A stretch of DNA of 64,000 bases from NCBI GenBank assembly GCA_963720545.1, contig OY970399.1, positions 160,001 through 224,000 on the forward strand, written 5' to 3'. This document shows positions 16,701-22,700 of the stretch, piece after piece; within the stretch, counting starts at the first letter, position 1; each line of letters starts with the position of its first letter. This DNA is from an uncultured Acidobacteriota bacterium. Its GTDB lineage: Bacteria > Acidobacteriota > Vicinamibacteria > Fen-336. Made by a program: the position numbers.

Positions 16701-19700
16701 GAGGCGAACGCGCGCTACCAGCAGCTCGCCGGGCGCACGGTGAAGGACGCGCAGCGTGCCATCGTCGAGATGCTGCGCGATCCCGCGGGCGATGCGACGG
16801 GCCGCGGCGAGGCGCCGCTGCAGGGCGAGCCCGAGCCGACGACGCACGCGGTCAAGTACTTCGAGAAGGGCGACCGCCCGCTCGAGTACATCACCACGCG
16901 CCAGTGGTTCGCGCGCATCCTCGACCACAAGCAGGAGTTGGTGGCCGCGGGCGAGCAGATCGTCTGGCACCCCGACTTCATGCGCACGCGCTTTCGCAAC
17001 TGGACGGAGAACCTGCAGATCGACTGGTGCGTGAGCCGGCAGCGCTTTTTCGGCGTGCCGTTTCCGATGTGGTACGCGCTCGACGCCGAGGGCCGTGCCG
17101 ACTTCGGCAAGCCGCTGACGGCCGCCGACGAACAGCTGCCGGTCGATCCCACCATTGCAGCGCCGCCGGGCTACCAGGAGTCGCAGCGCGATGCCGCGCA
17201 CGGGTTCCGCGCGGAGAGCGACGTCTTCGACACCTGGTTCACGAGCTCCATGTCGCCGCAGATCGTCACCGGCTGGCACGCCAACAAGGAGCTGCACGCG
17301 CGCATGTTCCCGATGGACCTGCGGCCGCAGAGCCACGAGATCATCCGTACCTGGGCCTTCTACACGATCGTCAAGTCGCTGCTGCACGAAGGCACAATTC
17401 CGTGGCGGGAGGCGGCCATCTCCGGCTGGGTGCTCGACCCCGACCGCAAGAAAATGTCGAAGAGCAAGGGCAACGTGATGACGCCGGTAGGGCTGCTCGA
17501 CCAGTTCGGCGCCGACGCGGTGCGCTACTGGTCGCTGTCGGCGAAGCTCGGCGTGGACACCACCTTCGACGAGAAGGTCCTGAAGGTCGGCCGCCGGCTG
17601 GTCACCAAGTTGTTCAACGCCGCGAAGTACGTCCTTGGCCAGGACGCGCCGGGCGACGCGATTACGCATTCGGTCGACAAAGGCTTCATGCGGCGGCTCG
17701 GCGAGGTGGCCCGCGAGGCGACGGCGGCGTTCGAGGAACAGGACTACGCCACCGCGCTCGGCGTGACGGAGCGCTTCTTCTGGAGCCGCTTCACCGATGC
17801 CTATCTCGAGATCGTGAAGGCGCGAGCGCGCTCGGAAACGGATGCCGCGGGCCGCACCTCCGCCGTTGCGGCACTGCACCAGTCGCTCGGCGTCTTCCTG
17901 CGGCTCTTTGCGCCGTTCCTGCCCTACGTGGCGGAGGAAGCGTGGTCGTGGACGCATGGCGAAGGCGTCGCGCGCAGCATCCATCGCGCGGCGTGGCCGG
18001 AAGACGCGGAGTTCGCCGCGGTGGGCGGGTCCGAGGAAGACGCAGCCATTTTCGACGCGGCCGCGTTGACGCTCGAGGCGATTCACCGCGCGAAAAGCGC
18101 CGCGGGCGCCACAGTGGGCCGGCACGTGGACCGGCTCGTGATCCGCGCGGGCGCCGAGGTGGAAAAGGCGGTGCGGGTGTGCCTGCCCGACGTGCTCGCA
18201 GCGGCGCGGGTCCAGGACCATGCCGTCGAGGTGATCGCCGGCGGCGGCATCGAAGTCGCAGACATGGAGCTCGCCGAGGCTGCACCCGGCGAGCCCGCGC
18301 CGCCCCCGGCCTGACGAGCGTTGGCTGACAAGGCCGCGCTGCTCGCTGCGGCGCTGCGCGAGTCGGGCGGCGACTGGCCCGCGCCCATCGAGCACCACGC
18401 CGAGATCGGCTCGACCAACGACCGGCTGCGGGTGATGGCGCGCGACGGCGCGCCGGAGTGGAGCGTGGTGTTCGCCGATTTGCAGACCGCCGGCCGCGGG
18501 CGCCACGGCAACGAGTGGCGCTCGGGCCCGGGCAACCTGTACCTGTCGGTCCTGCTGCGGCCCCGCATCGAGGCAAAGTGGCTGGGACTGGTGCCGCTCG
18601 CGGCTGGCCTGGCTGTCGCCAAGGCGGCGCGCGGCTTCGGCGCCGATGCGCGGCTCAAGTGGCCAAACGACGTCTGGGTGGACGAGCGGAAGCTGGCAGG
18701 GATCCTGGTCGAGGCGCATTCCACAACGAGGGGCGTCGAGGAAATGATCGTCGGGTGTGGAGTCAACGTGGCGAGCGCCCCGCAGGCGCCGCGCCGCAGC
18801 ACCGGGGCGGTGGCGCCGATCGCACTCTCGAGTGCACGCGGCGGGAAGCGCGCCGCCGACCCGGTTGCCGTCGGCGCATCCCTGTTGCGCCGGATGCAGG
18901 AAGCGCTGGCGCTGCTGCACCGCGACCCCGCTGCGCTGCGCGCCGAGTGGCGCCTGCTGTCGCTCCCATGGTGGGGGCGCGTCGTCGCGGTCGAGGCCGC
19001 GGACGGACCACTGCACGGCACGCTCCAGGATCTCGACGCAGGCGGCGGCCTGATCCTCGAGACCGACCAGGGCAGGAGCGTCACGGTCGTCTCGGGCGAA
19101 GTGCGCGCGGTGCGGCTCGGGTGAGCGAGTCCGCCTACTTCCGGGCGGTCGAGGAAGACTTCGTCAGCCGCCGCGGCGGTGTGCTGATGCTCTCGACCGC
19201 CGACTGGCACCTCATCTGGAAATGGCACCACGCCCGCGTCCCGCTGCGTGTGGTCCTGCGCGGCATCGCCGACGCCTTCGAGGCGCACGCGCATTCACTG
19301 CGCCGCAAGGAGCCCGTGCGCGGGCTGCGCTATTGCGCCGACGAAGTGGAGAAGGCGCGGGCACGGTGGCGGCGGGCTCTGGCTCTCGACCGGGCCGAGT
19401 CGCTGCAGGACCACGCGCACCTGAAGGGCCTCGCCGAGTCATGGCGCGCCGCCGCGCTGCCGGCTCAGCTTGAACCCGCGCGCGCCGCGCTCCTCACGGC
19501 ACTCGAAGCCGGGCCAGCCGCAGGCGAGGACCTGCAGGCCTGGCTGGTGCTGCGCGAAGGCGAGGCGCGGCACGCGGTTGCCGCGGTGGTGCCCGCCGCG
19601 GAACGCACCGCATTGCAGCGCGCCGCCGAAGCCGACATGGAGAAGTACCGCGGCCGCATGCCGCCGCGCACGTTCGAGCGCATCATCGAGGAAGGCGTCA

Positions 19701-22700
19701 CCCGGCGCCTGTTCGAGCGCTTCAAGCTGCCGCGGCCGAGCTTCATCGCGTGAAGAAGGGCATCCGCAGCGACAAGGCGCGGCTCGTCGAGGTGGACATC
19801 GAGCGCGTCGTCTACGGCGGCGACGGCCTCGCGCGCCATGGCGGACAGGTGATCTTCGTGCCGCGCGGGCTGCCGGGCGAGCGGCTGCGCGCTCTGGTGG
19901 TGGAGGAAGGCAAGGGCTTCGCCCGCGGCCGTGCCGCCGAGTGGCTGACGCAGAGCCCTGAGCGGCGCACATCGCCCTGTCCGCTCTTTCCCCGCTGCGG
20001 CGGCTGCGCCCACCAGGACGTCGCCTACGAATTCCAGCTGCGCATCAAGGCCGACATCCTGCGCGAGACCCTGAAACGCGCGGGGGTCGTGCCTCCCGAG
20101 GACATCGCGGTGACCGGCTCCTCCGAGGCGGGCTGGCGGTCTCGGGCGCGCTTCCATGTGGAGGGACGCTTCGGCGACACCCGTCTCGGCCTCTACGCGC
20201 ACGGCTCGCACCGAGTCGTGGACATCGACTATTGCCTTCAGCTCTCCGCCCCGCTCAACGCCGCGGCGGGAGAGGCGCGGCGCTTGCTGCAGTCGCGTCC
20301 GGCGCTGGCCGCCGCCGCCACCGAGGTGCTGCTCGTGGAGGCGTACGACGGCAGCGCGCGCGTCGCCGTCTTCCGCCTGCGCTCGGCGGCGGACCGAGTC
20401 GAACCCGACCCCGTCGAGCCCGAGCCGCATTCCGTGCTGGCCGGCTTCGGCATCAGCGCGCCGGGCCCCGAAGGCGAGCGCTTCATCGGACTCTGGGGCG
20501 ACTGCGAAGTCCGCGTCGAGGTCGCCGGCCTCGAACTGCGCGCGCACGCCACGAGCTTCTTCCAGGCGAACCGTTTCGTCGTTCCGAGGCTCGTGGCGCA
20601 CGTCGCGAGCCTGGTGCCCGGGGGCGAGAGAATCGCCGACCTCTACGCGGGCATCGGCTTCTTCACGGCGGCGCTCGCCGCGCCGGCCGAACAGGTGGTT
20701 GCCGTGGAGGCGGCGCCATCGGCGGTGGCCGATGCGCGCGCCAACATCGCACGCCTGCGTCTCACCAATGTCGCGGTGCGCCGCTCCGACGTCGCGGCCT
20801 TCGTGCGCGACGGCCACGCTTCGGCTGCGACCACCATCATCCTCGATCCGCCGCGTACCGGTGCCGGCAAGGCGGTGATGGCCGGGCTGGGCGGCGGCAA
20901 GGCGCGTCGCATCGTCTACGTCTCGTGCGACCCGCCGACGCTCGCACGCGACCTGCGTGAGGCGGCCGCGCACGGCTTCGAGCTGCGCTCGCTGCACGCC
21001 TTCGACATGTTTCCGGACACCTCGCACCTCGAGTCGGTCGCGCTCCTCGAACGGTAAATAAACCGACCCACGCCTGCCTGCAGCGCGGCCGCAGCCGCCT
21101 AGCGTCGTGCCATGTCCGCCGCGAAGCCGCTCCTCACACTGTCCCTGGCACTGTCCGCGGGCGCCTGGGCCGGAGACGGCGCCGCACGCTGGCAGTCATG
21201 GCTGCTGGTCTCGCTGTGCGCCGCGCTTCTGTTCGTACTTGCAGTGCGGCCGGGCTCCGTGCGGCGTGCCGCGGGCGTCGCGGCGATGGCCGCCTTTGGC
21301 ATCGGCGCCGCCGGCATGGCGGCGAACGACGACGCGTACCGTCGCAACGCACTGCGCGCCGACGTCGCGGCCGGCCTCGATGCGCCTGTCTTGCTCAGCG
21401 GCCACGCCGTCGCCGACCTGGTGCCCGGCAACCCCGATCGGCGGCTCGTCCTCGATGTCACGGACGCGGAGGTTGACGGTGTGCGGCGGCCGTGGCGCGG
21501 ACGCGTGTCGCTGCGTGTCGGCGGGGAAGGCGCATTGCCGCTGGTGACCGCCGGCCGCCAGCTGGCGGCCTGGGCCAGCCTCTACCCGCCGCGCGGCACC
21601 CGCAGCGAGGGGGTTGTGGATTTCCGCGACCGCGCGCGCCGCCAGGGTACGCATGCTCTCGGCACGATCAAGAGCGCAACGCTCATCGACGTCGCTGCTA
21701 GCGGCGGCAGCCTTGCCGAGCCGATCTCGCGGTTGCGCCAATACGCTCGCGTGCTGTTGCAGCGCAGCATCAAGGGTGACGACGAACGCGGCCTTCTGGC
21801 ATCCCTGGTGTTCGGCGACCGCGGCGCCATCGATGCGGGGATGGAAGACGACTATCGGCGCGCCGGTGTCTTCCACGTGCTGGCGGTGTCGGGTGCGCAA
21901 GTGGCGTTGCTCGCCGCCATCGCCTGGCGCTGCCTGCGCCTGATGCGCGTGGCGCGCCGGGCGGCAACGCTGCTCTTGTGCGGCGCGGTCGCGGGATACG
22001 CGGTGTTCGCCGGCAGCGAAGCGTCGATCGTGCGCGCCGCGGTGATGGCCGGCGCGGTCGCGCTGGCTGCCTCGCTCGACCTCGACGCCTCGGGTTTCAC
22101 GGCACTCGGCGGCGCGGTGTTCGCACTCGTTGCGTATGACCCGGCCGCCGTCTTCGATGCCGGCTTCCAGTTGTCTGTTTCGGCCACCGCCGGCCTCATC
22201 GCGTTCATGCCGTCGCCCGCTGCGCAGCCGGAACTGCGCGGTGCGCGCCGCTGGCTGGCATGGCTGGTCGTCGCCTCGCTCGCGGCCCAGGCGGCGGTGC
22301 TGCCGGCGCAGCTCCTCCTGTTCCATACCCTGCCGATGGCGGCGCTCGGCGCGAACCTGGTGGTAGTGCCGATCTCATCGGCCCTGCTCGTCGGTACCGT
22401 AGCGTTCCTGGCCGCGGCGTCCGTCTCGCAGACGCTGGCCGCCGTGCCCGCGTGGCTCCTCGAGCACACGGCCGCGCTGCAGAACGCGTTCATCCACGCG
22501 TGGGCGCAGATCCCGGGCGTCGAGCTGAGCGCGCCGACCCCGCCCCTGTGGTGTCTCGCTGCCTACTGCGGCGGCCTGGTGGCGCTGGCACTCGGACGGC
22601 CTCGGGCCCGCGCCTTGCCGCTCATCGGCGCGGGGTTCTTCGGAATACTGTTCGCCGGCGGTCCGCGCGCCGACGGCCGGCTGCAACTGCACGCGCTCGA

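Follow-up and report, generated by a model that had tools for sequence, protein, structure and literature searches.

We analyzed a window of 64,000 nucleotides (the whole stretch of DNA considered here) from an uncultured Acidobacteriota bacterium (GenBank assembly GCA_963720545.1, contig OY970399.1, positions 160,001 to 224,000), in which a gene lacking any family assignment, here termed gene X, lies within a series of housekeeping genes:

15663..18314, + strand: valS, valyl-tRNA ligase, located upstream in the housekeeping block that also holds gene X
18321..19124, + strand: birA, biotin-protein ligase, its stop overlapping the start of gene X
19121..19753, + strand: gene X, 210 aa, all-helical with two domains; a resident gene, one copy here
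19121..19399, + strand: X N-domain (residues 1-93), four helices
19400..19753, + strand: X C-domain (residues 94-210), a helical bundle of no known family
19750..21057, + strand: rlmD-type RNA methyltransferase, its start overlapping the stop of gene X

The reading frame proposed in the initial annotation, at 19121-19753 (+) between birA and rlmD with a 210-aa product, is borne out. Gene X starts with a GTG that overlaps the birA stop and ends with a TGA that overlaps the rlmD start, with GTGA at both ends. It is part of a conserved block, valS-nadC-birA-coaX-X, and sits between birA/coaX and rlmD/comEC, outside any phage replication module, with a GC3 of 0.88 similar to that of its neighbors. 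The most stable of these are coaX and birA, found within 1.5 kb in 38 of 55 loci. Three BirA-X fusions are on record, although frameshifts where the two genes overlap may have produced them artefactually.

As previously stated, X belongs to no Pfam and no NCBIfam family. Its orthologues, earlier counted in 47 of 61 genomes, are more widespread still, as we recovered X in 150 of 151 sampled genomes of the phylum (128 by a first search and 22 of its 23 misses by better profiles). The claim that it is single-copy holds for its own genome, but three genomes of the sample carry a second, divergent copy. A genome scan with one narrow X pattern returned 22 loci, 21 of them in Acidobacteriota; a profile search counted 3476 clusters; and the matches in the ESM Atlas were all unnamed clusters from Acidobacteriota or Aminicenantota. 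Among 8000 scored candidates, the longer proteins with the X domain were Bacillales initiators and X-like proteins, and nothing else. Our literature search, mostly of open-access text, returned no description of X or of a resident acidobacterial dnaC/I. Gene X is a near-universal Acidobacteriota gene, unnamed so far.

The first ~90 residues of X show clear homology to the domain at the C-terminus of lambda-O-like or XkdB-labelled initiators from Bacillales phages and plasmids. First, the N-domain profile matched 10 of the 11 mobile initiator C-domains tested (25-56 bits), and profile-profile comparison of the two sets gave an hhalign value of 99.5% (E 1.5e-22). Second, the PHROG matches given in the initial annotation were recovered: X from this genome matches PHROG 7498 (E 1.4e-6; residues 4-79 against profile positions 177-251 of 296), as do 128 of 131 homologues, with 74 of 131 also matching PHROG 16826. 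Third, X and the initiators of these groups (phiOH2 gp42, labelled XkdB; Jimmer gp77; pAT1) share an ~85-residue domain with the segments RRG-x-x-L-x-[LV]SP-x-D and INS-x-x-Y. The best-conserved part of X is exactly this initiator-derived domain. By these profile matches, the X N-domain derives from phage replication initiators. The architecture differs, however: the shared domain is N-terminal in X and followed by a new helical domain, while the HTH (Phage_rep_O) origin-binding domain of the phage initiators is absent from X by both Pfam search and the AF2 model. Further, X lies in a housekeeping operon with no adjoining loader. In 7 of 10 distinct annotated mobile records, the gene or genes after the X-like initiator encode a DnaC/DnaI ATPase, a loader/inhibitor and DnaB, or DnaB. 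Two of these initiators precede a non-ATPase loader and one directly precedes DnaB with no loader between; the ATPase cases include one gene labelled 'DNA replication protein'. Two of the 10 records show no loader or helicase after the initiator, and one stops at the record's end.

The second protein named in the initial annotation, a resident DnaC/DnaI-type ATPase (here Y), was likewise confirmed, being present in 149 of 151 genomes, with a non-prophage context. Y matches PF01695 (E 1.3e-11) and combines a DnaI-like N-terminal Zn module with an AAA+ domain; in an alignment of 46 members, with family f35 outside it, all keep the Walker A motif and 44 keep the Zn finger. Y often lies downstream of dnaJ-hspR-sigma: hspR, sigma or dnaJ occurs within 1.5 kb at 30 of 43 loci, in families distant from one another, as against none of 12 extra prophage-like copies. 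In the nine genomes of f35, Y carries a K>R substitution in Walker A and an altered Walker B, and its branch is double the typical length. These genomes retain X with no measurable acceleration, a weak test given that the X tree is saturated. In a quick tree, Y groups with loaders of acidobacterial prophages whose initiators lack the X domain, rather than with those encoded after X-like initiators, and there is therefore no sign of a single co-domestication of X and Y. The same tree requires three label changes for Y, with a single origin possible. The absence of an X-type domain was established for the initiators of three such prophage-like elements, each with a Y-like loader. A word-based search of viral contigs, which detects close relatives only, recovered none for X or Y.

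X had been described as the 'missing' co-loader of this ATPase, a premise that fails: the genome encodes DciA (PF05258; 154 aa, E 6.5e-10), as do 105 of the 151 genomes (101 over the Pfam cut-off). With DciA present, no 'missing' loader needs explaining. DciA and Y occur together in 103 of 151 genomes, 94 of them outside f35. A survey of 1,426 genomes found none that co-maintained dciA and a resident dnaC/I, the reason being called unknown (PMC5109545). Thus, against the published pattern, Acidobacteriota keep both, and most genomes retained dciA after the arrival of Y, contrary to the loss expected for a domesticated DnaC/DnaI loader. Our searches found no DciA in 45 of 151 genomes, among them every sampled member of some families (f25, 0/11; f43, 0/5; f37, 0/4; f15, 0/3; f30, 0/3), although its loss may be overstated because at least one miss, in genome G020, resembles a real, divergent DciA. 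A table published in 2016 likewise lists no dciA for the culturable A. capsulatum. All the genomes without a detected DciA keep X and Y. PriA was present in all five genomes tested.

The initial annotation had taken X for a DnaD-domain protein in a Firmicute-style pathway. The PHROG name 'DnaD-like helicase loader', which attaches to nearly all X homologues, is a label on phage initiators. At the sequence level, comparison of X with two Pfam-positive phage DnaD domains gave hhalign values of only 0.4-0.7% (4% for the mobile homologues of the X domain), and X matched none of the solved DnaD chains. DnaB_2 (PF07261) had no match in the genome at E<=0.1, with the B. subtilis and L. lactis controls positive, and none in the 22 X homologues scanned. 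Among the NCBIfam families, no DnaD model featured in the best 25 of the 54 matched, the remainder matching one member each. E. coli DnaT likewise showed no sequence match to X (hhalign 0.2-0.3%).

The high confidence claimed for the AF2 model was reproduced (pLDDT 93.7), as were its fold matches to the DnaD domains 2i5u (Z 6.2, 68 aligned residues, rmsd 2.7, rank 16) and 2zc2 (Z 5.7, 66 aligned, rmsd 3.0, rank 35). AAA+ lids, however, match the X N-domain at up to Z 7.8, above the DnaD domains, with nothing at Z>=8; SPP1 G39P shows a weak fold resemblance. Foldseek against PDB and viral models yielded nothing at E<=0.001, the top viral rows, initiator-like proteins included, being non-significant. 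A sequence search of solved structures retrieved only low-complexity helical matches with the full X profile and nothing useful with the N-domain, and the C-domain recovered only generic helical bundles (Z<=6.2). A winged-helix domain is absent from X, as the model is all-helical and its four-helix domain starts at residue 3.

The DnaA-DnaD-(DnaB)-DnaI pathway of B. subtilis (PMC13326638, PMC10201434) does offer a similar small four-helix fold (Z about 6) and, like Y, a Zn-module AAA+ loader. Placing X in the DnaD family would make the acidobacterial system its counterpart; X, however, has neither an N-terminal oligomerisation domain nor a Pfam DnaB_2 match, we found no second DnaB-like protein, and DciA is present. 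X as a DnaD family member failed on both sequence and domain evidence. We reject the label because X has no winged helix and no DnaD sequence match and its fold match is weak, and consider such a Firmicute-style pathway very improbable.

Proximity of X and Y had been offered as a sign of their association. At least 27 of 49 same-contig pairs do lie within 20 kb (the pairs were compiled from separate position lists, and some may be missed), but the linkage is loose, with none within 5 kb and a minimum of 9.6 kb; in the genome studied here they are 2.98 Mb apart on the contig. Twenty regions chosen for proximity resolve into two housekeeping blocks, arranged in three ways and separated by many unrelated genes. 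No replication gene was seen among the annotated conserved genes that separate X from Y in these regions, 10 of 43 representatives being without a Pfam match. We rejected linkage as weak evidence of partnership. An apparent co-loss of X and Y in f35, seen with the first queries, vanished with better profiles. There is no co-loss signal because both genes are near-universal, and rate co-variation gave no signal, the X tree being saturated.

The housekeeping setting raises the alternative that X was co-opted outside helicase loading, for instance as a nucleic-acid-binding or chaperone-like factor of the nadC-birA-coaX operon, which would render its ancestry uninformative. The stability of coaX and birA as neighbors, the recorded BirA-X fusions, the lack of replication genes among those annotated between X and Y, the commonness of the X fold and the new domain that makes up more than half of the protein are all compatible with this. 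Conversely, long mixed housekeeping operons are usual in Acidobacteriota genomes, the conservation of X peaks in its initiator-derived domain, and its near-universal retention fits an essential core role. We therefore regard co-option of this kind as unlikely.

Alternatively, X might act in replication without Y, by binding DnaB or ssDNA directly, in concert with DciA or PriA, or through a C-terminal tail tethered to the sliding clamp, with Y filling a separate, stress-linked role in the heat-shock operon. The retention of X where Y is degenerate (f35), the mobile homologues that precede DnaB or a non-ATPase loader, and the placement of Y behind dnaJ-hspR-sigma agree with such a division. So does the C-terminal end of X: in 83 of 131 homologues it has the form xL[STD]LF (compared to 7 of 5838 control ORFs), coinciding at four of five positions with the clamp motif QL[S/D]LF (bioRxiv 10.64898/2026.05.27.728225). 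However, the first position of that motif is named as important (bioRxiv 10.64898/2026.05.27.728225), and here it is R in 58 of the 83 and Q in just one; further, X of this genome lacks the motif, and the model predicts an ordered tail for it (pLDDT 86). Moreover, lineages without a detectable DciA need another loader, for which Y is the only candidate seen. A role for X in replication independent of Y thus appears rather improbable.

What stands of the initial interpretation is a phylum-wide X with an initiator-derived N-domain and a resident Y, whereas the DnaD label and the 'Firmicute-style' epithet do not. We favor the reading that X, a domesticated initiator domain, assists in delivering the replicative helicase, probably with Y, and give it an even chance of being correct. 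Under this proposal, a phage initiator would have lost its origin-binding HTH, and the C-terminal domain that remained would have become joined to a new helical one, giving rise to X; the acidobacterial ancestor would have fixed X and also a phage-type Zn-finger AAA+ loader, Y. X would most likely be a non-catalytic adaptor like DnaT, DopC or B. subtilis DnaB/DnaD, positioning on ssDNA the DnaB helicase, probably delivered as a helicase-Y complex. It would act at stalled forks marked by PriA and, in lineages that no longer have DciA, at oriC as well. From sequence we infer the binding of DNA or helicase by X, its partnership with Y, and its role in restart versus initiation.

Joint action of X and Y is plausible by analogy with dnaT-dnaC of E. 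coli and dopC-dopE of Cellvibrionales/Oceanospirillales (PMC5509034), which likewise couple a resident non-catalytic, initiator-related protein with a phage-type loader. Those pairs are adjacent and replace dciA, whereas X and Y stand apart and dciA is mostly kept; X also lacks the HTH of DopC, and Y is of the DnaC/I type, whereas DopE is of the lambda P type. Several observations speak against the pairing: none of the 49 same-contig pairs brings X within 5 kb of Y, unlike the two precedents; f35 keeps X while its Y is degenerate; and helicase delivery takes three different forms next to mobile homologues of the X domain, which is against the ATPase as its fixed partner. DciA could be the loader in most genomes.

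Since nearly all Acidobacteriota keep X and a phage-type loader, mostly alongside DciA, they may load their DNA-unwinding enzyme in two ways. More specifically, and only tentatively, as we hold it to be somewhat less probable than its converse, two helicase-loading systems might have coexisted since the last common ancestor of the phylum: ancestral DciA, and a domesticated pair with X as initiator-derived adaptor and Y as AAA+ loader. The two would split the work between origin and fork restart, with Y under heat-shock control; several lineages would later have dropped DciA, while f35 let the ATPase of Y decay instead. If true, Acidobacteriota would add a phylum-wide case to the known domestications of DnaC/I loaders, bring in a new co-loader family and form a lasting exception to the rule that DciA and DnaC/I exclude each other. 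On the preferred reading of X itself, a phage initiator domain would for the fourth time have become a putative host factor, and a near-universal unnamed gene of the Acidobacteriota would gain a testable, sequence-predicted role. The coexistence of DciA and Y would offer a way to ask if initiation and restart can use different loaders, and a phylum that keeps both dciA and dnaC/I, with lineages seemingly resolving either way, would give direct access to the cause of the exclusion.

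We found g00164, the 210-aa gene between birA and rlmD, to be a resident gene across the phylum, and more widely than the initial annotation had claimed.

19121-19753, + strand: g00164, 210 aa; its GTG start overlaps the birA stop and its TGA overlaps the rlmD start

Among 151 phylum genomes, each at least 90% complete (all tallies count the unpublished G023, G048 and G145), a full-length profile recovered it in 128 and an N-domain profile in 22 of the 23 missed (20 of these 22 ORFs were read), giving 150/151; neither profile found it in G122 (93% complete). The genome studied has one copy, with a GC3 (0.88) like that of birA, rlmD and valS, and a Pfam scan again assigned it to no family. 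Across the phylum, 38/55 loci have coaX or birA no farther than 1.5 kb away. Three genomes have a second, divergent gene of this kind (L114, L115, L116; G058, G045, G012), and the BirA–g00164 fusion proteins on record (P0073, P0137, P0170) are either real or frameshifts across the overlapping genes. Ahead of valS, window positions 12679-15656 hold a methylmalonyl-CoA mutase-like gene, a B12-binding gene and a response regulator, which also stand before valS in several distant relatives.

The AF2 model of the protein (pLDDT 93.7, pTM 0.67) is all-helical, with four helices in residues 3-91 followed by a helical bundle. With the N-domain modelled alone (pLDDT 92.4), the previously reported matches to DnaD domains reappeared (2i5u: Z 6.2, rmsd 2.7, 68 residues, rank 16; 2zc2: Z 5.7, rank 35), but AAA+ lids scored higher (up to Z 7.8); SPP1 G39P scored Z 5.3, and no structure reached Z ≥8. 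The fold by itself settles nothing about the identity of this domain; sequence does. The only PHROG match of the protein is 7498 'DnaD-like helicase loader' (E 1.4e-6, residues 4-79), which 128/131 homologues share, in line with the initial annotation. When one N-domain was run by tblastn against GenBank phages, the four records returned were all phage initiators of the Bacillales type. Matches to the N-domain profile are found in the C-terminal domains of phiOH2 gp42 (hhalign 97%), Jimmer gp77 (98.6%, 55.6 bits) and altogether 10 of 11 mobile initiators that were themselves chosen from searches with this domain (25-56 bits); profile–profile comparison with the mobile initiator domains gave 99.5% (E 1.5e-22). 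Whereas the phage initiators have an HTH or Phage_rep_O domain at the N-terminus, g00164 has neither. PF07261 had 0 matches in the genome, with B. subtilis and L. lactis controls positive, and neither the protein nor its phage homologues matched two Pfam-positive phage DnaD domains, E. coli DnaT or the Phg_2220_C domain (0-4%, targets of 1-2 sequences). Because the phage C-terminal domains match, the HTH has been lost and DnaD, DnaT and PF07261 matches are missing, the DnaD label has to be given up: judged by sequence, g00164 is a derived phage-initiator domain. A true DnaD pathway of the Firmicute type, as first suggested, appears very improbable; the domain might still have a remote link to the DnaD, DnaT or Phg_2220_C families and, by its modelled fold, possibly sits in the DnaD superfamily.

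Among mobile elements, phiOH2, PK5.2 and pAT1 have a DnaC/DnaI-type ATPase after the initiator, Jimmer a 'DNA replication protein' (counted as a loader), two plasmids a loader/inhibitor and DnaB, and one record DnaB directly; CBP1 and pAACI01 have other genes there, and one record stops at the initiator, short of the downstream gene. What these contexts share is the delivery of a helicase rather than the ATPase itself. A role of g00164 outside helicase loading seems unlikely.

The DnaC/DnaI-type ATPase g02725, a candidate partner, is likewise a resident gene, as had been proposed.

G000:C1:3163532-3164305 (contig C1 of the genome studied): g02725, 258 aa; N-terminal CxxC...CxC and PF01695 domain

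It was found in 140/151 genomes at E≤1e-15, and nine genomes of family f35 have a divergent version after the sigma gene (eight read, L191-L194 and L196-L199, the ninth placed by its position beside hspR), giving 149/151. For G025 and G054 the search returned DnaA only; hspR, too, is missing from G054, pointing to a gap. At 30/43 loci, hspR, sigma or dnaJ is found no more than 1.5 kb away, against 0/12 for extra copies, and those extra copies that were read lie in prophage-like DNA. In the genome studied, dnaJ-hspR-sigma70-g02725-hemW form one run (G000:C1:3161111-3165447), and heat shock may regulate the gene; dnaK does not occur in the 14 kb read around it but precedes dnaJ in most of 20 relatives. 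Outside f35, aligned members have an intact Walker A (46/46) and Zn finger (44/46). The syntenic f35 versions have the Walker A lysine replaced by arginine, a changed Walker B and an insertion after the retained Zn finger; since all eight read conserve this altered form, they have probably been put to another use and not simply decayed. In a quick tree of 53 rows, with low support, five acidobacterial mobile loaders cluster with 29 of the 31 residents, apart from GenBank phage loaders; the two f15 rows fall outside, and the loaders following g00164-like initiators are not the residents' nearest kin. This tree fits one origin or several. Prophage-like elements L102-L113 (G038, G078, G102, G114, G146) carry loaders closer to g02725 than any GenBank phage loader tested; G038 has five prophage-like loader copies, behind DUF1376-type initiators.

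Across 1,426 genomes, dciA and resident dnaC/I were reported never to be co-maintained (PMC5109545). Here they co-occur.

G000:C1:3864277-3864732 (L008:1306-1770), - strand: dciA, 154 aa, intact-looking, outside the window, between maf and a thiolase gene

This DciA (E 6.5e-10, over the cut-off) has the C-terminal helical extension. Pfam detected DciA in 105/151 genomes (101 over the cut-off) and a phylum alignment in 93, one of them new; DciA and g02725 are present together in 103 genomes, 94 outside f35. DciA was not found in 45 genomes (relaxed search: 0/45 over the cut-off), and one weak match (G020) looks real. Families f25 (0/11), f43 (0/5), f37 (0/4), f15 (0/3) and f30 (0/3) are blank, and DciA has likely been lost in some lineages. 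The four acidobacterial rows retrieved from the PMC5109545 Supplementary Data each have at least one PF01695 protein, which may be g02725, and three have dciA, A. capsulatum being without. In Vibrionaceae, dnaC beside dciA in 22 genomes was interpreted as phage genes (PMC11087808, whose main text does not mention Acidobacteria).

The proximity of g00164 and g02725, put forward in the initial annotation, holds at the coarser scale: by positions collated by hand, 27/49 same-contig pairs lie within 20 kb (14/27 families) but none within 5 kb, and as a sign of partnership this linkage is weak evidence. In 20 regions selected for proximity, g00164 sits in a valS-nadC-birA-coaX block and g02725 in a dnaK-dnaJ-hspR-sigma-hemW block; the two blocks occur in three arrangements, with comEC, tatC, lnt, prfB, rpoN and fatty-acid enzymes among the genes connecting them, and valS-dnaK linkage equals that of the pair. 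The case is evenly balanced for g00164 being an adaptor that would bring DnaB to single-stranded DNA, probably joined by g02725 in delivering it at stalled forks or oriC. Precedents are dnaT-dnaC, dopC-dopE (PMC5509034), where DopC combines a retained O-like HTH with a C-domain of the DnaT type, and the B. subtilis DnaB tail that binds DnaI (PMC13326638). PriA is present in 5/5 genomes tested; priA of the genome studied (G000:C1:52150-53674, outside the window) is in two pieces in different frames, by frameshift or assembly error. Against a partnership count the complete want of adjacency (0/49 pairs within 5 kb), of co-loss among the 151 genomes, of rate co-acceleration (a weak test) and of any sign of joint origin, and the retention of g00164 where g02725 is degenerate (f35). 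Participation in replication without g02725, perhaps via a clamp-like tail, is an unlikely option: xL[STD]LF occurs in the last 25 residues of the alignment in 83/131 homologues versus 7/5838 control ORFs and resembles the sliding-clamp motif, but has R in place of Q and is absent from the genome's own g00164.

Within the incomplete coverage of our literature search (which also took in parts of bioRxiv 10.1101/2022.01.24.477630, PMC3814617, PMC10201434 and PMC9836290), we found no description of g00164 or of a resident acidobacterial dnaC/I. A domesticated phage initiator domain with a loader is an already known kind of system, to which g00164 and g02725 would belong. The function we infer for g00164 is not solid; the distribution of the two genes and the exception that they make to the DciA rule are.
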